DNA from: Candidatus Choladousia sp.
GTDB taxonomy: Bacteria > Bacillota > Clostridia > Lachnospirales > Lachnospiraceae
Assembly (NCBI GenBank): GCA_045119335.1
Contig: JBGVDJ010000022.1
Location: forward strand, 30,547-94,546
DNA length: 64,000 nucleotides
Direction: 5' to 3'
Position numbers and translations under genes: made by a program. Shown in pieces: positions 38,503-51,959 of this stretch (position 1 is its first letter; every line of letters begins with the position of its first letter). The notes under the pieces are model-generated. The model made no database searches and was not told the origin of the DNA. It worked only from the letters and a program-made list of their open reading frames with translations.

Positions 38503-40056
38503 TTACTGCTGCAGCAGTTTTTTCTTCAATTCAGATTCCCGGGTGGTGAAATCCAGCTTTTTCTGGTAACGTTCATACAGTTCGCTCGGGTATCTGCGCA
38601 GGAACGAAGCGAAGAGCGGATTCTGGCTCAGTGAGGAGAGAAATACAGTAAATTCCGCTCCGTCAGAAGCTGCGAGCAGCGCGATGCAGCGCTCCAGTTT
38701 CTGTGTCAGAAACGTCGCTTCTGATTCCTGTGAATTTCGGCGTTCCAGCAGGATGGATTCGCATGGAAGATCCGGGACAGTGCCGGAATCCTTTTCATTT
38801 TCCGGATAGGATGAACTCATATGCGGAGAATTTTCGGAAATAGCTGCCCGATATTCATACCCGAGTGAACGCAGTTCGTACAGAGAATGCTGCATTTTCT
38901 GAAGCTCCTGTTCGGAGGACAGTCCATGTTCTTTGCGGACAGTGAGGATTTCCTGTTCTTTTTTCAGAAAATCGGGTATCGCAGTCAGTCTTTTTTCTAT
39001 GTGCTGTTGTTTTCTGTAGCGTTCCAGTCGATCGAACAGACCGGAAAGCCGGTTCAGCTGTTCCTGATCCGCATCCCATTTCTGAAGCATTCCGCCGAAG
39101 CAGGACAGCATCAGATGGACCAGATGAAGTTTTGCGTCGAACTCGTTTCCGGACAGGATCCCGCTGCAGGATGCGGCGGCGGTTTCCTCTCCGTCCATCA
39201 TTGCAGGAACGGGAATCGTCTTTTTTCGTGACAGAAAAAGATGATAATATCCGGCAAAATCCTGCGCCAGATCTTCGCTGTGCAGATACTGGGCAATGAG
39301 AGCCGGTGTGACGGGAAAGTCCTGTGCTTCGTACTGCAGGAGCAGACAGGAAAGGTCCTCCCAGCCGCGCGCGGTAGCAAAGGATCTGTTGGAATAGCTC
39401 TGCTTCAGCAGATAAAAACTGTCGCGGTGGGTATCCAGATAGGAGAGGATGGCACCGTGGATATTCATCTCCAGTGCGTACGGCCGCCATGCGTCATAGT
39501 CAGCCTCCACCTCAATGTATTTCAGACGGTCCAGCGTTGCAATGTCGAACTCACGCACGGATTTGTTGTATTCCGGCGGATTGCCTGCGGCCGCCAGTAT
39601 CCAGCCGTCCGGCAGCCGATGGTTTCCGAAGGTCTTGGTCTGCAGGAACTGGAGCATGGCAGGGGCCAGTGTCTCGGATACACAGTTGATCTCATCAAGG
39701 AACAACAGCCCTTCCCGGCAGCCGCTCTCTTCAATGCAGGAAAAGACGGAGGCGATAATCTCGCTCATGGTATATTCTGTCACAGCATATTCCCGACCGT
39801 CAAATATGCGGCGCTCAATAAAGGGCAGACCGATGGCACTCTGGCGGGTGTGATGGGTCATGGTATAGGAAACGAAGCCAACCCCGCATTCAGAGGCAGC
39901 CTGTTCCATGACGGCGGTCTTGCCGATGCCGGGTGGGCCGATCAGCAGCAGCGGACGCTGGCGCAGTGCCGGAATTGCGTAAGCACCCCACTCGTTTTTT
40001 GCGGTATAAGTACGAATCGTGTGTATGATTTCCTGTTTGGCATCTCTGATGTTCAT
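38503..40056 (-). CDS. MoxR-like AAA+ ATPase
   Basis: PLLLIGPPGIGKT, HHTRQSAIGLP, LFLDEINC, AAGNPPEYN, TLDRL, TARGWEDLS. Confidence 0.88.
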   Translation of the reverse strand: MNIRDAKQEIIHTIRTYTAKNEWGAYAIPALRQRPLLLIGPPGIGKTAVMEQAASECGVGFVSYTMTHHTRQSAIGLPFIERRIFDGREYAVTEYTMSEIIASVFSCIEESGCREGLLFLDEINCVSETLAPAMLQFLQTKTFGNHRLPDGWILAAAGNPPEYNKSVREFDIATLDRLKYIEVEADYDAWRPYALEMNIHGAILSYLDTHRDSFYLLKQSYSNRSFATARGWEDLSCLLLQYEAQDFPVTPALIAQYLHSEDLAQDFAGYYHLFLSRKKTIPVPAMMDGEETAAASCSGILSGNEFDAKLHLVHLMLSCFGGMLQKWDADQEQLNRLSGLFDRLERYRKQQHIEKRLTAIPDFLKKEQEILTVRKEHGLSSEQELQKMQHSLYELRSLGYEYRAAISENSPHMSSSYPENEKDSGTVPDLPCESILLERRNSQESEATFLTQKLERCIALLAASDGAEFTVFLSSLSQNPLFASFLRRYPSELYERYQKKLDFTTRESELKKKLLQQ

Positions 40057-40073
40057 ATCAGGTCTCCTGTTCT

Positions 40074-41528
40074 TTAGAATTCGTCGGGCAGATGCAGATT
40101 CAGTCGGATCGCCCAGCCCGGGATCGCGTGTTTCTCAGTTTGGTTATTCAGAAATACGAATGCGGTATCCCACTGCGGCGGAGAATCCGGGAAAATTCCG
40201 TCCCCGTCCGTGAAATACAGCAGACCGCGCAGATGGCGGATCTCCTTTTCGTGGATCAGTTTATTCAGATAATCAAATACGGGCCGGAAGTCCGTATTCC
40301 CATGTCCGAGGATACGGATATCGGAAAGGGAAGCTTCCCATTCTTCGACACCCGTGAAAATGCGGTGCTCCTGGATCATGGAATCGCATTGGATCAGGTG
40401 GAGCCGCATCCTGGAGAAAAAGTTTTCACGCTGCCGCAGGATGCTCCATGTCTCCTCCAGAAAACGCTGTACGATGCGGCCGGAGCAGGAGCCGGAGGTG
40501 TCAATGGCGATGGCCAGCTCGTCGAGACGGTTGACTTCGCTGTATTCCAGCGGTTCCAGAAAGGAGATGCTCCGCGCAACAGGTTGATTACATGAAGCAC
40601 AGCGGGACTGTGCGGCATATGTGCGGATCTCGTCAGCATAACACTCCAGCCCGTAGCAGTATGGAATGTAATCGAAGGAGTCCATATCGAGCAGCGGTTC
40701 CTCTCTCGGTACGGCGAACTGTCTCAGAAACTTCCGGTAATCCATGTTGTCGTTTGGCTGCAGATCGGCTTCTTCTGAAGCGGTACCTCCACGACCGTTT
40801 CGCTGTCCTTCGGCGGCGGTGAGCAGCTTCGGCATTTTATTTTCCCAGTGCCTTCGGATCGTTTCCAGATAATCAAGCTGAGAATGATTCAGGTGAGCAT
40901 GCAAAGCAGAGGCTTCACGGGAGGTGCTGTCGCTCCCGATCGTTTTTGCATCGGGTTGATACAGATTCCGGAACCAGAACTGATGGGAATCCCGTGCGCA
41001 GGTGCCGGCGAGCCCGGGAAGCTCAGGACACGAGTCAAAAAGGCTGAGAATGGCTGCCGGATTGAATGGCGCAATTGCCGTTTTACCGGTCAAAGCTGCA
41101 AACTTTCTCAATAAGGTCATACTTTCTTCATCCCGGGACAGATGCGCGGCGAGAAGTTCTGTCGTCAGATCACAGGCCAGGTCCCAGCGCGCCGGATCTG
41201 TCCTGCTGCCCTGTATCAGATGCAGACAAAGGCAATGAATGTGCACGTGCAGATAGCTTTTTCGCAGATGAGCGGAATCTTCCAGAAAATTCTGCAGCAG
41301 GAGCTCAGGGTGGAAGAACAGATGAATTCCGTCTGTTCCAAGCGGTGCATCAAGTGATTCGCACGGTTCCTGCACCAGCTGTCCGAACGCTTCCGGAAAT
41401 GCCGGAAAGAGAACAAGCGCTTCCTCCTGAAGGAAACGCAGAATGCTGCAGGTCTGTCCCTGCTGCCTGTAATATGCGGTTTTACTGATCGGGATCGAAA
41501 CAGTGTCTGAAATTGTATGGTCCATCAT
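40074..41528 (-). CDS. DUF2201-type (metallopeptidase-like) N-domain + vWA domain protein
   Basis: LGTDG, YLHVHIHCLCLH, WDLACD; MIDAS AIDTSGSCS, GNTDFRPVF, LYFTDGDG; start at MMDHT approximate. Confidence 0.85.
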   Translation of the reverse strand: MMDHTISDTVSIPISKTAYYRQQGQTCSILRFLQEEALVLFPAFPEAFGQLVQEPCESLDAPLGTDGIHLFFHPELLLQNFLEDSAHLRKSYLHVHIHCLCLHLIQGSRTDPARWDLACDLTTELLAAHLSRDEESMTLLRKFAALTGKTAIAPFNPAAILSLFDSCPELPGLAGTCARDSHQFWFRNLYQPDAKTIGSDSTSREASALHAHLNHSQLDYLETIRRHWENKMPKLLTAAEGQRNGRGGTASEEADLQPNDNMDYRKFLRQFAVPREEPLLDMDSFDYIPYCYGLECYADEIRTYAAQSRCASCNQPVARSISFLEPLEYSEVNRLDELAIAIDTSGSCSGRIVQRFLEETWSILRQRENFFSRMRLHLIQCDSMIQEHRIFTGVEEWEASLSDIRILGHGNTDFRPVFDYLNKLIHEKEIRHLRGLLYFTDGDGIFPDSPPQWDTAFVFLNNQTEKHAIPGWAIRLNLHLPDEF

Positions 41529-41792
41529 TATTGCAGCCCTTTGCCATAAGTTCATATTTTCTGCTGCAATTTTATCATGGCTGAAAACGAATGACAATAT
41601 GAGGTGCACAAAGACAAAACAACTGAAGCAACAGACAGGAACAGATGGAGCACAGAGGTGAGCAGGCAGAGTGACAGATGAAAACAGGCAGACGGCAGAT
41701 GCGAGCAGGCAGAGCGACAGATATGAACAGTAAGACCCTGACAGGGCACATGCCGCCAGGGTCTGATATAATATCACATAAATTTTAACGGA

Positions 41793-42379: not shown

Positions 42380-44569
42380 ATGGGAATTACCTATTTTGAG
42401 AGCGAACGCATTTTTCAGATTCAGACTGTCAATACGACGTATCTGTGCGGATTGACGGAGGACAATTATCTCGGACACATTTATTATGGAAAGAAGATGG
42501 AGGATCACAGAGCCGGATATCTCCTGCGAACGAACGAGCGGCCGTTTACACCGTCCGTGCTTCCGCGCGAGAAGAATACATTTCTGGATGCATTTCCCAT
42601 GGAATATCCGACCTGGGGAACGGGAGACTACCGGGAAAGCTGTCTGAATGTTCGTTCTGAGTCAGGAAGCTGCGGGTGCGAGCTGCGCTATGTGAGTCAT
42701 GAGATCATGAACGGCAAACCGAAGCTGGCAGGACTTCCTGCAACATTCGGAACAGAAGAAGAATGTCAGACACTGGAAATTATGTGTCAGGACGAAGTGC
42801 TGGGTTTTACGGTCGTGCTGAGCTACAGTGTATTCGCAGACAGTGATGCCATTGCGCGCAGCGTTCGAATTGAAAATAAATCGGAGAAGAACCTGTATCT
42901 GGAACGTGTGCTGAGCGCATCCATTGATATGGAAGATGAGAATTATGAACTGCTGACTCTGCACGGTTCCTGGGCAAGAGAGCGTCATATGGAACGCAGG
43001 CCGCTTGGTCATGGCAGACAGGGGGTAGGTTCCTTCCGCGGCAAGAGCAGTCATCAGGAACATCCGTTTGCCGCACTGCTGGGCAGACATACGACCCAGT
43101 CTCAGGGACCGGTATATGCAATGAATTTTGTTTACTCCGGAAACTTTACAGCGCAGGTGGAACTGACGCAGGCGGACAGTGTGCGCATGATGATGGGAAT
43201 CCATCCGGAAGGATTCTGCTGGAAACTGGCTCCGGGCGAGATGTTCCAGGCACCGGAGGTCATTCTGGTATATTCAGACTGCGGTCTCGACGGTATGACA
43301 CAGAATTTCCATGACCTTTATCGGAAACATCTGATCCGCAGTCCGTGGCTGCATCAGGAGAGACCGATCCTGATCAACAACTGGGAAGCTACTTATTTTG
43401 ATTTTAATACGGAAAAAATTCTTGAGATCGCAACAGAGGCGAAACGGCTCGGTATCGAGATGATGGTACTGGATGACGGCTGGTTCGGAGCACGTAATAA
43501 TGATGACAGCTCTCTTGGCGACTGGCAGGTAAACGAAGAGAAGCTGCCGGGCGGACTGAAGTATCTGGCAGATCAGATCACGGCGATGGGAATGAAGTTT
43601 GGTCTGTGGTTTGAGCCGGAGATGATCTCTCCTGTGTCAAAGCTGTACGAGGAGCATCCGGACTGGGCGATTCAGCTTCCGGGCAGAGAGCCGACGCAGA
43701 GCCGTGCCCAGTATGTGCTGGATCTGTCAAGACAGGAAGTAGTTGATCATATGTATGAGGCAGTTGCCGCAATTCTTCGGGAGGCAGAGATTTCCTATGT
43801 CAAATGGGATATGAACCGCGAGCTGACCGATCTGGGCAGTGCATACCTTCCGGCTGACCGTCAGGGCGAGCTGAGTCACCGGTATGTGCTGGGATTGTAC
43901 CAGATGCAGGAACGTCTGATCACGGAGTTTCCGGATCTTCTGCTGGAGAACTGCTCCGGCGGCGGTGCAAGATTTGATCCGGGTATGCTGTACTACAGTC
44001 CTCAGATCTGGTGTTCCGACGATACGGATGCGATCGAGCGTCTGGAGATTCAGGAGGGAACGGCGCTGATCTATCCGCTGTCCTGTATGGGCGCACACGT
44101 CAGTGTATGCCCGAATCATACAGTCGGAAGAAATACACCGTTTGAGACAAGAGGTCATGTGGCTCTGGCCGGTACGTTCGGATATGAACTGGATGTAACG
44201 AAGCTGTCTGAGGAGGAGCGCAGCCAGATTCCAGGTCAGGTGGAGATGTATAAAAAGTACAATGAACTGGTGCGGGAAGGTGATTACTGCCGTATTGCAT
44301 CAGTACGTGAGAATCATCTGTATGACTGCTGGCAGGTAACGGACAAGGAGAAGAAGGAGTGTCTGGTGACCTATGTACAGGCAAAAGCGAGACCGAATTA
44401 CCGCAGCAGAAAGATTTATCTGAAGGGTCTGAAGGCAGATGCGGTTTACCTGTTGGAAGAAACCCAGGAACAGTACAGAGGAGAAATGCTGATGAACGGC
44501 GGATTTCTGGTGCCGGAGTTCCAGGGAGATGCGATAAGCAGACTGTATCATTTCGTGGAAGCAGAATGA
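42380..44569 (+). CDS. Alpha-galactosidase, GH36
   Basis: LINNWEATYFDF, VLDDGWFG, FGLWFEPEM, YVKWDMNR, ENCSGGGARFD, WCSDDTD. Confidence 0.95.
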   Translation: MGITYFESERIFQIQTVNTTYLCGLTEDNYLGHIYYGKKMEDHRAGYLLRTNERPFTPSVLPREKNTFLDAFPMEYPTWGTGDYRESCLNVRSESGSCGCELRYVSHEIMNGKPKLAGLPATFGTEEECQTLEIMCQDEVLGFTVVLSYSVFADSDAIARSVRIENKSEKNLYLERVLSASIDMEDENYELLTLHGSWARERHMERRPLGHGRQGVGSFRGKSSHQEHPFAALLGRHTTQSQGPVYAMNFVYSGNFTAQVELTQADSVRMMMGIHPEGFCWKLAPGEMFQAPEVILVYSDCGLDGMTQNFHDLYRKHLIRSPWLHQERPILINNWEATYFDFNTEKILEIATEAKRLGIEMMVLDDGWFGARNNDDSSLGDWQVNEEKLPGGLKYLADQITAMGMKFGLWFEPEMISPVSKLYEEHPDWAIQLPGREPTQSRAQYVLDLSRQEVVDHMYEAVAAILREAEISYVKWDMNRELTDLGSAYLPADRQGELSHRYVLGLYQMQERLITEFPDLLLENCSGGGARFDPGMLYYSPQIWCSDDTDAIERLEIQEGTALIYPLSCMGAHVSVCPNHTVGRNTPFETRGHVALAGTFGYELDVTKLSEEERSQIPGQVEMYKKYNELVREGDYCRIASVRENHLYDCWQVTDKEKKECLVTYVQAKARPNYRSRKIYLKGLKADAVYLLEETQEQYRGEMLMNGGFLVPEFQGDAISRLYHFVEAE

Positions 44570-44703: not shown

Positions 44704-45540
44704 TTATTTTGTTACGTATACAACACCAAATACATCAGGTCCTACATGTGTACCGATGACAGAACCGATCTGTACGCGTCCGGCTGTACTGTAACCGGCC
44801 TGTGTAAGCTTGGATTCAAAACGGTCACAGTTATCAGTTCCGCATGTATACAGGGTATACATGGGAAAACTGCTGTCAAGTTCCTGCTCCTGCAGATTCT
44901 TCAGCAGTGCGGAAATGGCCTTGTTGCGGCCGAAACATTTGCCCATCACACCTACGGTTCCTTCCGGTGTGACAGTAATGATCGGCTTCAGATTGGCCAT
45001 TTCGCCGATAGCGGCGGCGGCTCTGCTCACACGGCCTCCGCGGCAGAGGTATTCCAGTGTGTCAACGGCGGCAGTAACCTTGACGCGGGACTTCAGCTGC
45101 TCGAGCTGTGCTGCGATATCGGCTGCAGCCATTCCCTGTTCGATCAGCGTGAGCGCATGATCTGCCAGAACACGGATCGGGCAGGTGGCTGTCATTGTAT
45201 CAATTATATAAATTTTGTCGTAATCTGCCATGCTCTTGGCGAGAGCAGCACTCTGACATGTACCGCTGATTCCGGAAGAGAGCAGAAGACAGAGCAATTC
45301 GTCTCCGTTTTCTTTTGCTTTTTCGAAATGGTTGAGAAAGTCCTGCGGAGACGGCTGAGAAGTTTTCGGAAATTCTTTGCCCTGAGTGAGCATCTCATAG
45401 AATGTGTCATTGTCAAGTTCCTCACCCGGGATATAGCTCCTGTCACCAAAAGTGACTCTGAGCGGTACAGTTGCGAAATCCTTTTCACGAATTTCATCCA
45501 TTGTGTAGTCACAGGCGGAATCCAGTAGTATTTTAATCAT
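44704..45540 (-). CDS. DegV-family fatty-acid-binding protein
   Basis: LDSACD, PKTSQPSP, SSGISGT, LEYLCRGGRVS, GTHVGP. Confidence 0.93.
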   Translation of the reverse strand: MIKILLDSACDYTMDEIREKDFATVPLRVTFGDRSYIPGEELDNDTFYEMLTQGKEFPKTSQPSPQDFLNHFEKAKENGDELLCLLLSSGISGTCQSAALAKSMADYDKIYIIDTMTATCPIRVLADHALTLIEQGMAAADIAAQLEQLKSRVKVTAAVDTLEYLCRGGRVSRAAAAIGEMANLKPIITVTPEGTVGVMGKCFGRNKAISALLKNLQEQELDSSFPMYTLYTCGTDNCDRFESKLTQAGYSTAGRVQIGSVIGTHVGPDVFGVVYVTK

Positions 45541-45974
45541 ATCAACACCTCTTCTGCAGTTTTTGCAATTATTGTAAACATCTCAATAAAATCATCCACG
45601 CGGTCGGTACCAATCTTCTCAATGATCGCATCTACCAGTTTCAGCACTTTTTCATGCTGCCTCTGATACAGCGTGGACTCCGTATTGGGAGTAATGTAGA
45701 CCTGACGGCGATCCGCATCGGAACGTTTCCGGATGATGATGCCTTTGTCTTCCATGCTCTGAAGCGTTCGGTTCATCTGGGATTTCAGCATTCTCGACAG
45801 ACGGCACAGGTCAGTGGCAGTCAGCTCTGTGTCAGGATACTCATTCTGATGGTGATACAGGATATTGCAGAGCAATGCTTCATTGTACGGCATATCAGAA
45901 GTCACCCGCTCGTTGCTGACAGTTGTGCAGAGACGAAGGTATGCATCAAGCAGTTCTTCATTCTGTTTTTTCAT
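45537..45974 (-). CDS. MarR-family transcriptional regulator
   Basis: TATDLC..SRMLKSQMNRTLQSMEDKG.I.RKRSDADRRQVYI; 4-nt overlap with degV. Confidence 0.88.
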   Translation of the reverse strand: MKKQNEELLDAYLRLCTTVSNERVTSDMPYNEALLCNILYHHQNEYPDTELTATDLCRLSRMLKSQMNRTLQSMEDKGIIIRKRSDADRRQVYITPNTESTLYQRQHEKVLKLVDAIIEKIGTDRVDDFIEMFTIIAKTAEEVLI

Positions 45975-46151: not shown

Positions 46152-46245
46152 CACTTTAAAACGGGGAGGCTGTGTGGCCTGAGAGTAAACCGAACGGTTT
46201 TGACCCTTTGAACCTGATACAGATAATGCTGGCGCAGGAAAATAG
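46152..46245 (+). ncRNA. TPP (thi-box) riboswitch
   Basis: CGGGGAG...CTGAGA...GACCCTTTGAACCTGATACAGATAATGCTGGCGCAGGAA; downstream terminator-like hairpins (about 46250-46320). Confidence 0.95.
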
Positions 46246-46344
46246 GACAGAGTACATGTGTTTTTGTTGTACGTGTATTTTCGTATATTCAGTTGCCAGT
46301 GCATAAGCCTGGCAATTTTTTTGCATTACAGAGATAAAAAAGGG

Positions 46345-47118
46345 ATGAAAAATTTTATGAAAAAGATATCAAATGCAGCTCCGACTCTTGTAATACTGAG
46401 TCTGCTGGTCTGTTGGGAGCTGATCGTGCAGCTGGCAGGGATTCCTCTCTATGTACTTCCTGCCCCCAGCGATATGCTGAAATCTTTTCTTGCAGAATTT
46501 CCAACGCTGCTCGGTCATGCAGGTGTGACAATGATGGAGGCGCTTGCAGGAATGGCAATTTCATTTGCGATCGGTATTGTGATCGGCATAATGATGGATG
46601 CGGTGCCGACTTTTAAGCGCTGCATTTATCCGATCCTGGTGGTGACACAGACTGTTCCGGTGATCGTGCTGGCGCCGATCTTCATTATTTATATGGGATT
46701 CGGTTATGCGCCGAAGATTCTGACCGTTGTGCTGATGTGTTTCTTTCCCATTGTCATCAGCTTCAGTGACGGACTTGGCGAGATGGATGAAGGATACCTG
46801 AATCTGGTGCGGACATACGGAGGCTCGAAGTGGCAGCTGTACCGGATCGTCAAAATTCCGTCTGCAATGATCTCCCTTCTGTCCGGATTAAAAGTGGCAG
46901 CGACTTACAGTATCAGCGGTGCTGTGGTGGGGGAGTGGATCGCTTCTCAGAGCGGACTCGGTTATTATCTGATCCGCGCGAAGAACGGATATATGCTGGA
47001 TAAGGTATTTGCCTGTGTGCTTATGATCATACTGCTGAGTCTGCTGATGAACGGGCTGGTAAAGATGTTCGGATATGTGGTAATGCCGGGGGTGCGCGGG
47101 AAAAGAAGCAGAGCGTGA
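46345..47118 (+). CDS. ABC permease, ThiX-like (HMP/thiamine precursor uptake)
   Basis: QTVPVIVLAP, EAA-like loop, GAVVGEW..SQSGLGY; under TPP riboswitch. Confidence 0.88.
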   Translation: MKNFMKKISNAAPTLVILSLLVCWELIVQLAGIPLYVLPAPSDMLKSFLAEFPTLLGHAGVTMMEALAGMAISFAIGIVIGIMMDAVPTFKRCIYPILVVTQTVPVIVLAPIFIIYMGFGYAPKILTVVLMCFFPIVISFSDGLGEMDEGYLNLVRTYGGSKWQLYRIVKIPSAMISLLSGLKVAATYSISGAVVGEWIASQSGLGYYLIRAKNGYMLDKVFACVLMIILLSLLMNGLVKMFGYVVMPGVRGKRSRA

Positions 47119-47207
47119 TCTGCAGTCAGGAACGTTTCCAAACGGCGTACAATAGCAGAAGATGTATTTAGCCGATCGGATAATAAAGAAGAAAAGAGGA
47201 AGATATC

Positions 47208-48203
47208 ATGAAAAAAGGATGGAAAAAAGGTGCGGCTTTCCTGAGCGCAGCAGCAATGCTCATTGGAACGGCAGTGACAGGATGTGCTGAGGAAACAGAG
47301 CTGAAAAAAGTAACGGTAATTCTTGACTATGTGCCGAATACGAACCATACCGGCATGTATGTTGCACTTGATAAGGGTTATTATGAGGAAGAAGGACTGG
47401 AGGTTGAGATCATTGAACCGACAGACGGAGCGACTGCGACACTGGTCGCACAGCAGAAAGGCACCTTCGGTATCAGTTATCAGGAGGATGTAACGATCGC
47501 ACTGACCTCGGAGGATCCGCTTCCGATCAAAGCGGTCGCAGCGCTGATCCAGCATAATACCTCCGGTTTCGTCAGTCTGGCGGACAGCGGAATTGAGTCT
47601 CCGGCTGATTTTGAAGGCAGGACGTATGCAGGTTGGGGAGGTCCGGGAGAGTCAGCTGTGTTGGAAGCATGTATGACACAGGCAGGTTCAGATTTCTCCA
47701 AGTTGAATATGGTTATTTCAGACGGAACCGGATTTGAGGCACTTGGCAAGAGCTGCGACGTGATGTGGTTCTTCGAGGGTTGGGACAATGTGATTGCTGA
47801 GATGAACGGCTGTGAACTCAACTATATGGAATGCAAAGAACTGGATGAGCGTCTTGATTATTACACACCGGTTCTCATTGCGGGCAATGCTGTTCTGGAG
47901 GAAGACCCGGAGATGGTATCCGCATTCCTGCGTGCGACAGAAAAAGGTTACAGAGATGCGATAGCGGACTCTGATGAAGCGGCAGAGATCCTGTACTCCC
48001 ATGCACCGGACTATGATCTGGAGATGCTGAAGATCTCACAGGCATATCTGGCAGATAAATATATGGAAGATACGGATGTCTGGGGCATAATGAAGGAGGA
48101 AGTCTGGGACAACTATGCTGCCTTTCTGAAGGAGTACGGTGTGATTGACGAAATGCCGGCGGCAGCCGACTGCTATACGAATGAGTTCCTGACGCAGCAG
48201 TAA
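47208..48203 (+). CDS. ABC substrate-binding lipoprotein, ThiY/NMT1-like
   Basis: VTGC lipobox, LDYVPNTNHTGMYVALDKGYY, DYYTPVL. Confidence 0.9.
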   Translation: MKKGWKKGAAFLSAAAMLIGTAVTGCAEETELKKVTVILDYVPNTNHTGMYVALDKGYYEEEGLEVEIIEPTDGATATLVAQQKGTFGISYQEDVTIALTSEDPLPIKAVAALIQHNTSGFVSLADSGIESPADFEGRTYAGWGGPGESAVLEACMTQAGSDFSKLNMVISDGTGFEALGKSCDVMWFFEGWDNVIAEMNGCELNYMECKELDERLDYYTPVLIAGNAVLEEDPEMVSAFLRATEKGYRDAIADSDEAAEILYSHAPDYDLEMLKISQAYLADKYMEDTDVWGIMKEEVWDNYAAFLKEYGVIDEMPAAADCYTNEFLTQQ

Positions 48204-48269
48204 ATGAGAGGTGGAGCGGGTTCCGGCTGTGGGTACGAAGGAGGCTGTTTCAGACAGGGAGAGGATATT

Positions 48270-48998
48270 ATGAATCTGTGTGTTGAAAATCTGAGTTTTT
48301 CCTATCCGGATAAAACCGTTCTCCGGGATATTTCTTTTGAGGTAAAGGACGGGGAATTTATCAGCATCCTGGGACCGTCCGGCTGCGGAAAGTCCACGCT
48401 GCTGAATGTTCTGGCCGGAATACGGAAGCCGGAGAACGGAAGGATTCTGATTGACGGTCAGGTCACAGAAGGTATGAACAGCCAGTTTGCCTATATGCCG
48501 CAGAATGATCTGCTGCTCCCGTGGAAGACGATTCTTGATAACGTGTGCCTGTACGGTGAGATTCATCACTGCAAAGAAGAAATGAAGAAAAAGGCACGTG
48601 TACAGATGGTACAGTTCGGTCTGGAGGGCTGCGAGCATAAATATCCGGCCGAGCTTTCCGGAGGAATGCGCCAGCGCGCGGCATTTTTGCGGACGACATT
48701 GTGTGAGGCAGGAATATATCTGCTGGATGAGCCGTTCGGTGCACTGGATGTTATTACGAGAGGCGACATGCAGGACTGGCTCCGTGCGCTCTGCAGCAGT
48801 CTGAAGAGAACTATTCTGCTGGTGACACACGATACGGATGAGGCAATTTATCTGTCAGACCGGATACTGATCCTCGGAGAGCCGGGGGAAGGAATCCGGG
48901 AGGAGATTGCGATAACACAGCGTGAACGTACGCGGGAATGGCTGTATGAGCAGGGTGCGCTGCGTGCGCAGGTCCACAGGATCATTAAAAAGAAATAA
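48270..48998 (+). CDS. ABC ATP-binding subunit, ThiZ-like
   Basis: GPSGCGKST, LSGGMRQR, LLDEPFGALD, VTHD. Confidence 0.92.
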   Translation: MNLCVENLSFSYPDKTVLRDISFEVKDGEFISILGPSGCGKSTLLNVLAGIRKPENGRILIDGQVTEGMNSQFAYMPQNDLLLPWKTILDNVCLYGEIHHCKEEMKKKARVQMVQFGLEGCEHKYPAELSGGMRQRAAFLRTTLCEAGIYLLDEPFGALDVITRGDMQDWLRALCSSLKRTILLVTHDTDEAIYLSDRILILGEPGEGIREEIAITQRERTREWLYEQGALRAQVHRIIKKK

Positions 48999-49062
48999 GG
49001 CTTCCGAAGGGCAATCGCCCGTACAGGGAAGCAGCGCTGCAGGATACGAGAGGGAAGATACA

Positions 49063-49926
49063 ATGCAAACCCGAATGCTTGATATGCATGCCCATTTGGC
49101 ATGTCTGAGTGAAGAATATGTCAAAAATCTGACGCAGAAGCAGAGATACGGATTCGGAATACAGGAACTGAAATTACGGAGGTCGCAGAATATTGCGACC
49201 TTTTTCAGCTGCGGAACACCGGAAGAGTGGAAAGCTGCAATGAATCTGATGGAGGAAACAGGAAGAGACGGCTTTTACATGAGCTTTGGAATTCATCCAT
49301 GGTACAGTGACCGGTACTGTCCTGAGGATTGTATCGAACTGCTGAGAGATTGTGATGCCGTTGGAGAAATCGGTATGGATTCCGTCTGGTGTGATATACC
49401 GCTGCCGGTACAGCGCCGTGTGCTGGAGCGCCAGCTTCAGATTGCTGCTGATCTGCGCAGACCGGTAATCCTGCATACAAAAGGGCAGGAGCAGGAGGTC
49501 GCGGATATTATCCGGGATTTCCCGGGAAAGGTCTGTGTACACTGGTATTCCGGGGATGTGAAGACGTTGGAACGATTCATTCAGATGGACTGCTATTTTA
49601 CGTTGGGCCCGGATCTGGAGAAGGTATTTCCGGGCAGAGCATCTGCGAGAAAGACGGGCTGTGAGTGTGCAGAAGAAAAGGACAGGGCATCTGGGGAGTT
49701 GTACCGGTATATGCTGAACAGAATTCCGGCAGATCGTCTTTTCCTTGAGACAGACGGGATTTTGGCAGTTGCGTGGGCGAGAGGAGCAGCTGCCCTTCCA
49801 TTGGAGGAGATTTCGGTGGTTCTGAATGAGAATCTTGTTCATCTGGCTCATTATAGGAAAGTGAAGGCAGATGAGATGCAGGCGGAAATCTGGAGGAATC
49901 TTCAGAAATTTCTCGGAAATACATGA
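49063..49926 (+). CDS. TatD-family (amidohydrolase-fold) metallohydrolase
   Basis: LDMHAH, GIHPW, GEIGMD, ILHTK, VHWYSG, LETDG. Confidence 0.85.
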   Translation: MQTRMLDMHAHLACLSEEYVKNLTQKQRYGFGIQELKLRRSQNIATFFSCGTPEEWKAAMNLMEETGRDGFYMSFGIHPWYSDRYCPEDCIELLRDCDAVGEIGMDSVWCDIPLPVQRRVLERQLQIAADLRRPVILHTKGQEQEVADIIRDFPGKVCVHWYSGDVKTLERFIQMDCYFTLGPDLEKVFPGRASARKTGCECAEEKDRASGELYRYMLNRIPADRLFLETDGILAVAWARGAAALPLEEISVVLNENLVHLAHYRKVKADEMQAEIWRNLQKFLGNT

Positions 49927-50102
49927 AAGAATACAGAAAGCAGGCAGATAAAGCAGATATCCGGAACAGGAGTAGAAAATGAGCGTCCGGAATTAGATAT
50001 GAAGCAGATAACACAGATAGGATATGCAGCAGGTATCCGGAACAAAGGATATCAGATAAGTCTAAAATGAGAATATAAAAATACAGAAAGGAAGGCCCTC
50101 CG

Positions 50103-51959
50103 TCAGGAAGGCCTTCTTCTGCTTTCAAAATAAACAAACCGGTCGATGGCATCCAGAATATCGCTGAATTCTTCCCGGGGGGCCAGTTCCACATACTGAT
50201 TCAGCAGTTCCCGCTCTCTTTTGCGGAAACGGCCGTAGAACAGGTCGAATATATCGTGTCCGCGCATGTAGATTCTGATCTCCTCCATATGCTGCCGCAC
50301 ATCTTCGACAGTCTGGAAATCTTTTCCGAGCACCTGGCGCAGATGCTGTCCACTGCGGGTCCGGTGGAAATAACGTTTCCATTCGTGCAGGAACATATGA
50401 TAGAAATCCTCCTCTGTCTGCAGCACTCCGATCTTCACCATGATCGCCGGATTCAGAAAATAATTCTCAAAGGAATAATAGCGCAGGATCAGTACATTCT
50501 CCGGCTGCACCCGTGGAAGCGCACCGACATCTTCACGGCTGCGTGCATCGTAGTAGCGGCAAAGGTCGTTCTGCAGTTCCTGCCGGTCCCTGCCGTCGCT
50601 GTCACGGATCATCAGGAACTGATCCTTCAGATAAATCTGATTCATGTATTTCAGGTTCGCATATGTTTTGATATTGGTACAGCTGTTCGTATTAATGATG
50701 GCAATACGGAACAGACTGCCGTCCTCCTCGCAGACCTCTGAATAATATTTTCGAAGCAGCATCGGCAGGCGGCTCTTGTCCTGTTTGCCCTCCACGATAA
50801 AGACAAAGTTCACATTCATCAGGTCGCCGGCGGTATATCCCAGGTCGTTCAGAATCCGACTGATGTCCGTGTGCGGACGTACCCTGGAACAGCCCTGTTC
50901 GTCGAGTACCATCTGACGAATCTGTTTTGTGCTGAAGTTGGACAGCAGATTCGGGGAGTGCGTTGTGAAGATGACCTGATTCTTCCTGGAGAGCCGATAC
51001 AGGATCTCTCCGGCCACCTTCTGCATCTCCGGATGCAGGAAAATTTCCGGTTCTTCCACAACGATAATGCCCTGATTCTGACCTTCACCCTGCGCATAGG
51101 TTTCCAGCAGGGACAGCATATAGACGCTGCGCATGCCCTTTCCCATACGGTTCAGTGGCTGCGGATTACTGTGATTCGGACCGGTCATTTCTGCCGTGAC
51201 GGACAGCATTCGTTCCATATCACGGTTCATGGAGTAGTGAATGGTTTCCTGCCCGCCGTTCTGCCGGAAATTCTCATTCAGTTCCCGGGAAAAATCATCG
51301 AGGTTCAGCTGATACAGTTTATAATCCAGCAGTCTTGCTGCTTCGAATGCATTCAGTTCCACAGCAGCCTTTTTTCCGATTGTTTCAATACAGGCAAAAC
51401 AGTGGCTGCATTTTCTGGCACGGTCCAGAAGACAGCAGTCGGAACGCATCTGTTTTATCAGATCATTTTCCATCCACAGCAGCAGATCACGCTGAAACTG
51501 ACCGAGATTGCGCTGCGTATCAATGCAGTATACCTGCGGAAAAAGGTCGCGGATCAGCGGATTGTGCTTTTTCTGACTGTCAGCATAGCGGATACCGCCG
51601 TTCGGCTCGACAATAAATGTAAAAGTCAGTACGCCATCCTGAAACGACGGAAGCTTTTTCTGAAAATCCTGAAGCCAGACCTGATATGTTCTGAGTCTGC
51701 TGACGATACCATGCTGGTGAAAGAACTGCAGATCATCGTCTGATAATGCAAGCTCCACCTCGGCTGTGACCGGATGAGTATTGTCACGGAAATCATCGCA
51801 GCTGATGAGGTAAGTACCGGCGATCGCGCGGATGATTTCCAGTACGGCGGTTTTTCCGGTGCTGTTCTTGCCGACCAGGATCAGCGCATTTTCCAGATCC
51901 TCCAGGCACAGGTCACGGATGGATTTGTAGTTTCTGATAAGGAGTTTTCTGATGTTCAT
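50103..51959 (-). CDS. OLD-family ATP-dependent nuclease (ABC ATPase + TOPRIM)
   Basis: IRNYKSI, GKNSTGKT, GKGMRS, VEEPEIFLHP, TTHSP; TOPRIM VEGKQD, RDSD, SFENY; start MNIRK at 51959 after GGAGG. Confidence 0.87.
   Translation of the reverse strand: MNIRKLLIRNYKSIRDLCLEDLENALILVGKNSTGKTAVLEIIRAIAGTYLISCDDFRDNTHPVTAEVELALSDDDLQFFHQHGIVSRLRTYQVWLQDFQKKLPSFQDGVLTFTFIVEPNGGIRYADSQKKHNPLIRDLFPQVYCIDTQRNLGQFQRDLLLWMENDLIKQMRSDCCLLDRARKCSHCFACIETIGKKAAVELNAFEAARLLDYKLYQLNLDDFSRELNENFRQNGGQETIHYSMNRDMERMLSVTAEMTGPNHSNPQPLNRMGKGMRSVYMLSLLETYAQGEGQNQGIIVVEEPEIFLHPEMQKVAGEILYRLSRKNQVIFTTHSPNLLSNFSTKQIRQMVLDEQGCSRVRPHTDISRILNDLGYTAGDLMNVNFVFIVEGKQDKSRLPMLLRKYYSEVCEEDGSLFRIAIINTNSCTNIKTYANLKYMNQIYLKDQFLMIRDSDGRDRQELQNDLCRYYDARSREDVGALPRVQPENVLILRYYSFENYFLNPAIMVKIGVLQTEEDFYHMFLHEWKRYFHRTRSGQHLRQVLGKDFQTVEDVRQHMEEIRIYMRGHDIFDLFYGRFRKRERELLNQYVELAPREEFSDILDAIDRFVYFESRRRPS

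Follow-up and report, generated by a model that had tools for sequence, protein, structure and literature searches.

What does a TatD-fold hydrolase do as the last gene of a thiamine importer operon? The question is raised by a 64,000-nucleotide stretch of DNA from Candidatus Choladousia sp., the whole of which is called the window here. In this operon, a thiamine pyrophosphate (TPP) riboswitch precedes thiX, thiY and thiZ, encoding the permease, the substrate-binding lipoprotein and the ATPase of an ATP-binding cassette (ABC) importer, and a fourth gene, tatD, encodes the TatD-fold protein (Table 1). The original prediction described these elements as co-oriented and without a clear internal terminator, noted that the salvage enzymes TenA and YlmB are missing, and proposed that the divergent TatD protein replaces one of the two rather than acting as a DNase. 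The arrangement was borne out by the Rfam model, the domain profiles and the gaps of 89, 66 and 64 bp that separate the four genes, all on the forward strand. A terminator scan gave one weak match inside thiX, one inside thiZ and none between the operon genes (7 found in total versus 4.8 ± 1.9 expected). The locus is best explained as a TPP-repressed thiamine scavenging operon in which the TatD protein probably serves as a hydrolase in salvage and not as a DNase. We tentatively propose that it is a phosphohydrolase turning imported thiamine monophosphate (TMP) into thiamine for the thiamine pyrophosphokinase (TPK) ThiN.

The TPP-riboswitch thiX-thiY-thiZ-tatD operon is confirmed as real. Of 80 related loci, three were too short, leaving 77 informative, and thiZ lies directly upstream of tatD in 66 of these, whereas 11 are without the operon. 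Conserved in this many loci and down to ~31% identity, the arrangement lies far beyond chance. A simple TPP pattern matched 40 of the 80 loci. In genome samples drawn evenly from the family (n = 150), the class (n = 300) and the phylum (n = 330), the tatD subfamily gene was rare, being found in 2, 4 and 8 genomes, respectively (~1-3%). Of these 14 matches, 12 were located at a TPP-thiXYZ operon (family 2/2, class 4/4, phylum 6/8), and a thiamine context was seen for none of 60 TatDs lacking the residue signature of the subfamily given below. Two further architectures were found: a sister with 27% identity has the order TPP-tatD-PF01910-thiXYZ, and in a TPP-thiT-tatD arrangement the genes, with thiT assigned to PF09515, overlap by one base. 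In addition, we identified five TatD::ThiN fusions, three of them directly after thiXYZ, and two further loci in which a separate thiN gene immediately precedes the riboswitch. No fusion of more than 547 aa turned up, which is weak evidence. Together, the TatD::ThiN fusions and the pairing with ThiT suggest that the product is intact thiamine.

The AlphaFold model of the operon TatD is a TIM barrel (predicted local distance difference test, pLDDT, 93). Only TatD proteins are among its top structural matches (Z 25-27), the phosphotriesterase/lactonase group comes next at ~18, and the ESM Atlas returned unnamed TatD clusters only. Residues H9, H11, E102, H138, H160 and D231 align with the residues that bind the two metals in class II TatDs, and H78 aligns with His77 of TATDN1, which hydrogen-bonds phosphate (PMC10085689). 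Because all of these metal and active-site residues are invariant in the subfamily, the protein is very likely an active binuclear hydrolase. No signal peptide is evident in its sequence, and the enzyme would be cytoplasmic. With the class II TatD nucleases (E. coli YcfH and YjjV, human TATDN3; PMC10085689) it shares the fold, the HxH motif, the bridging Glu, two His, the Asp and the phosphate-contacting His, but it differs from them in its separate clade, its score against TIGR00010 and its thiamine gene context.

Column comparison with housekeeping TatDs showed that W80, E143, W161, G232 and W238 are invariant within the subfamily and absent from the housekeeping proteins, and that the ETDxPYL...RG..N and GG-x-TFKN loops of the latter are replaced. 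Relative to TatD/YcfH, HxR has shifted to HTK, HC to HW and ETDxPYL..RG..N to ETDG-x5-W. Since the signature positions follow barrel strands on the active-site face of the model, the subfamily may have a remodelled small-molecule pocket. The operon TatD scored 92.5 bits against TIGR00010 (YcfH/TatD), under the cutoff of 206, and profile scores within the family sample fell on either side of a clear gap (>200 versus <95 bits). A quick tree, used with caution, placed the subfamily apart from 21 other TatDs with modest support at the split (Shimodaira-Hasegawa, SH, value of 76, and 98 for the housekeeping clade). The host genome, which is 94% complete, has a separate housekeeping TatD scoring 270 bits versus 111 for the operon TatD. 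Judged by its sequence, the operon protein is a paralog apart from housekeeping TatD; the check for grouping with the housekeeping DNases thus gave a separate branch and a separate genome copy, and the divergence and thiamine linkage described in the original prediction both hold. Against this background it is quite improbable that the operon simply carries along a typical TatD nuclease, or else a hydrolase acting on a non-thiamine substrate. All neighbours of known structure are TatDs, and stand-alone and sister members lack a thiamine context, which would suit such a passenger, but the genome already has its housekeeping copy, other sequences stand in place of the YcfH-type C-terminal loop and the GG-x-TFKN loop, and the link survives three operon architectures and the ThiN fusion. 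A role as the QatD protein of Qat defence was rejected, as the match to NF041926 was 76 bits against a cutoff of 230 and the neighbouring AAA ATPase gene is convergent and not a recurrent neighbour.

The original prediction assumed that ThiXYZ imports formyl-aminomethylpyrimidine (FAMP) or hydroxymethylpyrimidine (HMP) precursors, a premise that is weak for this operon. Its ThiY scored 368 bits to the C. difficile protein 4NMY, the structure of which was solved with thiamin bound (PMC10586155), versus 109 bits to the FAMP-binding ThiY 3IX1. In a control tenA-thiZ-thiX-thiY operon from the same family, the preference of ThiY was reversed (265 bits to 3IX1 versus 135 to 4NMY). On these scores, the operon ThiY groups by sequence with the thiamine-bound 4NMY type of ABC importers, outside the FAMP/HMP-type ThiXYZ. 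The TatD-coupled ThiY subclade shows fixed differences from other 4NMY-type proteins, with G175 for Asp and Y41 for Trp, the latter at the position of the LD-W motif Trp of 4NMY. These substitutions are hints compatible with an altered ligand, not proof of one. An assignment of the protein as a THI5 HMP-P synthase was rejected: the KAMIH position reads SYQED, the score was 44 bits only, and the protein has a lipoprotein signal and ABC partners.

The operon thus resembles the C. difficile system in its binding-protein subfamily and in the TPP-riboswitch ABC operon predicted in that species, where, according to a review of its riboswitches, an ABC transporter under TPP control may import thiamine (PMC11477304), but differs in having the TatD-fold gene and no PF01910. 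The gene for this small thiamine-binding protein stands ahead of thiX in 35 of the 40 thiXYZ loci sampled (L094-L133) and was found in none of the 82 loci of the tatD-after-thiZ type (L009-L090), nor elsewhere in the host genome. The pattern would suit a TatD protein that stands in for PF01910 in buffering or handing off imported thiamine, with catalysis secondary. Such a role is nevertheless highly improbable, for three sister-branch loci (L096, L097 and L177) have both genes, the full metal site is invariant, and the exclusion may merely reflect the history of one transporter subclade.

Which thiamine pathway the imported compound would enter was approached through the gene content of the hosts. 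Homologues point to Lachnospiraceae as the family of the host described here. The genome carrying the operon has a thiW-thiM-thiE-[TPP riboswitch]-thiD-cytX cluster (contig G000:C20, L008:9223-13630) and ThiN, whereas TenA, ThiC, ThiL and ThiT were not found in the 94%-complete assembly, and no clear YlmB was found among the five best of eight M20 peptidase matches tested. The absence of TenA and YlmB stated in the original prediction therefore stands within that scope. In the thiW-thiM-thiE-thiD-cytX cluster the riboswitch sits mid-cluster, and none was found ahead of thiW.

Gene profiles were compared among 48 operon genomes, with base rates from the 150 family genomes. The pair ThiD and ThiE was detected in 27 of the 48, and the same 21 genomes showed neither; as thiD and thiE are usually adjacent, the joint loss counts as one observation. 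A ThiN was detected in 46 genomes, among them 19 of the 21 without ThiD/ThiE, and because of this the gap is not explained by incompleteness. One operon genome that is 99% complete (G069) is without both ThiD and ThiE, and a 98% complete, single-contig genome with a sister gene (G441) is without ThiE. ThiD was no commoner with the operon (56%) than in the family (67%, 101/150), and thiD, thiE and thiM were near none of the 80 related loci. ThiL was found in none of the 48 genomes; the ThiN-positive, ThiL-negative state is probably common in Clostridia, and is necessary for a TMP phosphatase role but does not discriminate in its favour. The tatD gene thus goes with thiamine transport and ThiN rather than with the salvage of pyrimidine or with de novo synthesis.

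These profiles bear directly on the proposal that the enzyme is a non-orthologous stand-in for the FAMP deformylase YlmB or the amino-HMP aminohydrolase TenA, making HMP for ThiD and ThiE. The amidohydrolase superfamily includes deformylases, and the host itself has the thiW-thiM-thiE-thiD-cytX cluster and no thiC, hence could use HMP. TenA was absent from all 48 operon genomes, as the suggested profiling would have it, but this says little: its base rate is 10% (15/150 family genomes) and the genomes are related, so the absence is weak evidence. Where ThiD and ThiE were not found, HMP would be unusable and the role therefore fits poorly. Moreover, the ThiY is not of the FAMP type, which the tenA-linked operon has, and the partners ThiT and ThiN are both specific for intact thiamine. 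We consider the replacement of YlmB or TenA very improbable and do not retain this part of the original prediction. The B. halodurans ThiXYZ/YlmB/TenA system (3IX1) likewise uses an NMT1-type ABC importer in thiamine salvage, but the locus described here differs from it in ThiY type, in having no tenA or ylmB, and in that ThiD/ThiE were not found in 44% of hosts.

The explanation we favour runs as follows. At low TPP, the riboswitch would let transcription pass the terminator, a mechanism read from the anatomy of the leader, and ThiXYZ would import thiamine or a phosphorylated form of it. Once imported, the derivative would lose a phosphate by ester hydrolysis at the two-metal site of the TatD-fold enzyme, in the simplest case leaving thiamine from TMP, and ThiN, the sole route to TPP found in these ThiL-less bacteria, would make TPP from the released thiamine. 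A thiamine derivative as the substrate is a strong inference, and cleavage at a phosphate ester a moderate one. Conversion of an imported thiamine phosphate to thiamine is the simplest version because the enzyme is predicted to be cytoplasmic, has a phosphoester-type site, is co-regulated with an importer and is sometimes fused to ThiN. Bacteria without ThiL must dephosphorylate TMP before the TPK reaction (PMC2766623). Haloacid dehalogenase (HAD) TMP phosphatases take on this task in some of them and, as relayed from Hasnain et al. (2016) in PMC5627462, are fused to or clustered with thi genes. The operon TatD shares with them the proposed conversion of TMP to thiamine before TPK and evidence of the same sort. 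Their fold is unrelated to TatD and, as far as that account goes, they accompany the synthesis genes thiD/thiE, whereas the operon TatD accompanies transporters.

The same genomic evidence would also suit an enzyme that frees thiamine from some other imported conjugate and feeds ThiN, by ester or amide hydrolysis of O- or S-acyl thiamine or ring-opened N-formyl forms, or by cleavage of adenylated thiamine. Binuclear sites of the amidohydrolase superfamily cut both C-O and C-N bonds, lactonases and phosphotriesterases are the next structural neighbours, and Y41/G175 of ThiY hint at a changed ligand. We nonetheless regard conjugate release as fairly unlikely, as the phosphate-contacting His and the TatD-like site are kept and no such conjugate of thiamine is known to us to be abundant in the gut. 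Damage control, in which the enzyme would hydrolyse phosphorylated forms of damaged thiamine or antimetabolites (oxy-/oxo-thiamine-PP) that are imported alike and activated by ThiN, is unlikely. Coupling to transport and not to synthesis would agree with it, and Nudix genes are found beside some thiXYZ operons. Goyer et al. in 2013 reportedly described a Nudix enzyme in thiamine damage control, and Tnr3 of fission yeast is a Nudix-TPK fusion, which the TatD::ThiN fusion parallels. The Nudix enzymes thus resemble the operon TatD as hydrolases linked to thiamine metabolism but have a different fold. Repression by TPP suits acquisition better than clean-up.

Several points weigh against a TMP phosphatase. 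The activity, like TMP binding by the operon ThiY, is a prediction, and we put the activity somewhat short of an even chance. To our knowledge, no phosphomonoesterase activity is known in the TatD family. In the family sample, 24 of 26 thiXYZ operons are without tatD, though the genomes tested are without ThiL, and other phosphatases may therefore suffice. The five ThiN fusions, 48-61% identical to P0137, probably share one origin and could reflect simple adjacency. The 11 of 77 loci without the operon (Levilactobacillus and others) stand alone without thiamine context, and a soil/sediment sister branch is mostly without it as well; no TPP riboswitch was found near the stand-alone members tested. 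Because of these members, the thiamine reading applies to the core clade. Within that scope, we consider it probable that this TatD clade left nucleic-acid metabolism and now serves specifically to hydrolyse thiamine derivatives, in partnership with an importer subclade adapted to a phosphorylated form of thiamine or to some other modified form.

Table 1. Features of the operon and neighbouring genes in the window (positions counted from its first nucleotide).
Feature	Position	Strand	Basis
TPP riboswitch aptamer (THI element)	46152-46257	+	Rfam RF00059, 55.8 bits versus gathering score 54.3, E 3e-8
Intrinsic terminator of the expression platform	46293-46322	+	GC stem then T7; sequence and hairpin in minimum free energy (MFE) fold
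thiX, ABC permease	46357-47118	+	PF00528, 112 bits
thiY-like substrate-binding lipoprotein, 4NMY (thiamine-binding) type	47208-48203	+	NMT1/THI5 PF09084, 217 bits
thiZ, ABC ATPase	48270-48998	+	PF00005, 111 bits
TatD-fold binuclear metallohydrolase gene, 287 aa	49063-49926	+	PF01026, 114 bits
Strong GC-rich hairpin past the last gene	50091-50116	found on -	Terminator scan and sequence
AAA_15 ATPase gene	50103-51956	-	
marR-degV pair	44704-45974	-	
MoxR-like AAA ATPase and VWA-domain pair	38503-41777	-	Sequence reading alone
alpha-Galactosidase-like gene	42380-44569	+	Sequence reading alone

The terminator between the aptamer and thiX does not appear in the original prediction's account of the riboswitch region. 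It points to an attenuator-type riboswitch acting by transcription attenuation, in which the 3' P5 strand of the aptamer could pair with the 5' arm of the terminator as an antiterminator. For the TatD-fold protein, the database picks a later ATG, giving 283 aa. The hairpin past tatD lies where the operon meets the convergent AAA_15 ATPase gene and probably terminates transcription from both sides. The ATPase gene, a possible defence gene, encodes a protein with a probable, OLD-like nuclease domain at its C-terminus. On the other side of the operon, the marR-degV pair is divergent; a similar pair is found near the operon in L257 and degV in L048, and it is elsewhere unconserved.

Other observations concern variants of these operons. 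Two Hungatella metagenome-assembled genomes (MAGs; L083 and L088) have eroded operons with thiX-thiZ-tatD and no thiY, and in three rabbit-gut MAGs (L012, L017 and L020) a short gene for a repeat coiled-coil protein, preceded by a promoter-like sequence of its own, is inserted between thiZ and tatD. One locus considered as a riboswitch over a lone tatD (L049) was rejected and not counted, as it shows a deletion scar, a truncated gene and an altered catalytic motif. A class I S-adenosylmethionine (SAM) methyltransferase gene tightly follows thiZ in four TPP-thiXYZ operons (L098, L103, L105 and L106), three of which then have a YkoF/PF01910-like gene; the methyltransferase is a candidate for another thiamine-related enzyme. 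In three loci (L099-L101) the riboswitch is immediately preceded by a Nudix gene, and at L257:4833-6098 the gene next after the TatD-like one encodes a Nudix-GNAT fusion.

The riboswitch and the transporter are of known kinds, whereas the enzyme-transporter module is real, conserved and apparently undescribed. A link between TatD and thiamine was not found in the literature searched, in which subscription journals were thinly covered, and the gene may already have an entry in regulon databases. The importance of the finding is limited by the rarity of the gene and by a chemistry deduced from context. TatD proteins are annotated as DNases by default, and if the reading proposed here is true, one TatD clade gains a cofactor-salvage function and the annotation of several hundred protein clusters would be corrected. 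How ThiN-positive, ThiL-negative bacteria handle TMP has so far been answered in part by HAD enzymes and a promiscuous GTPase. The module would add an undescribed salvage step in ThiL-less Bacillota, perhaps for an unrecognised B1 vitamer traded in gut communities, and it bears on the forms of B1 that gut auxotrophs can use.

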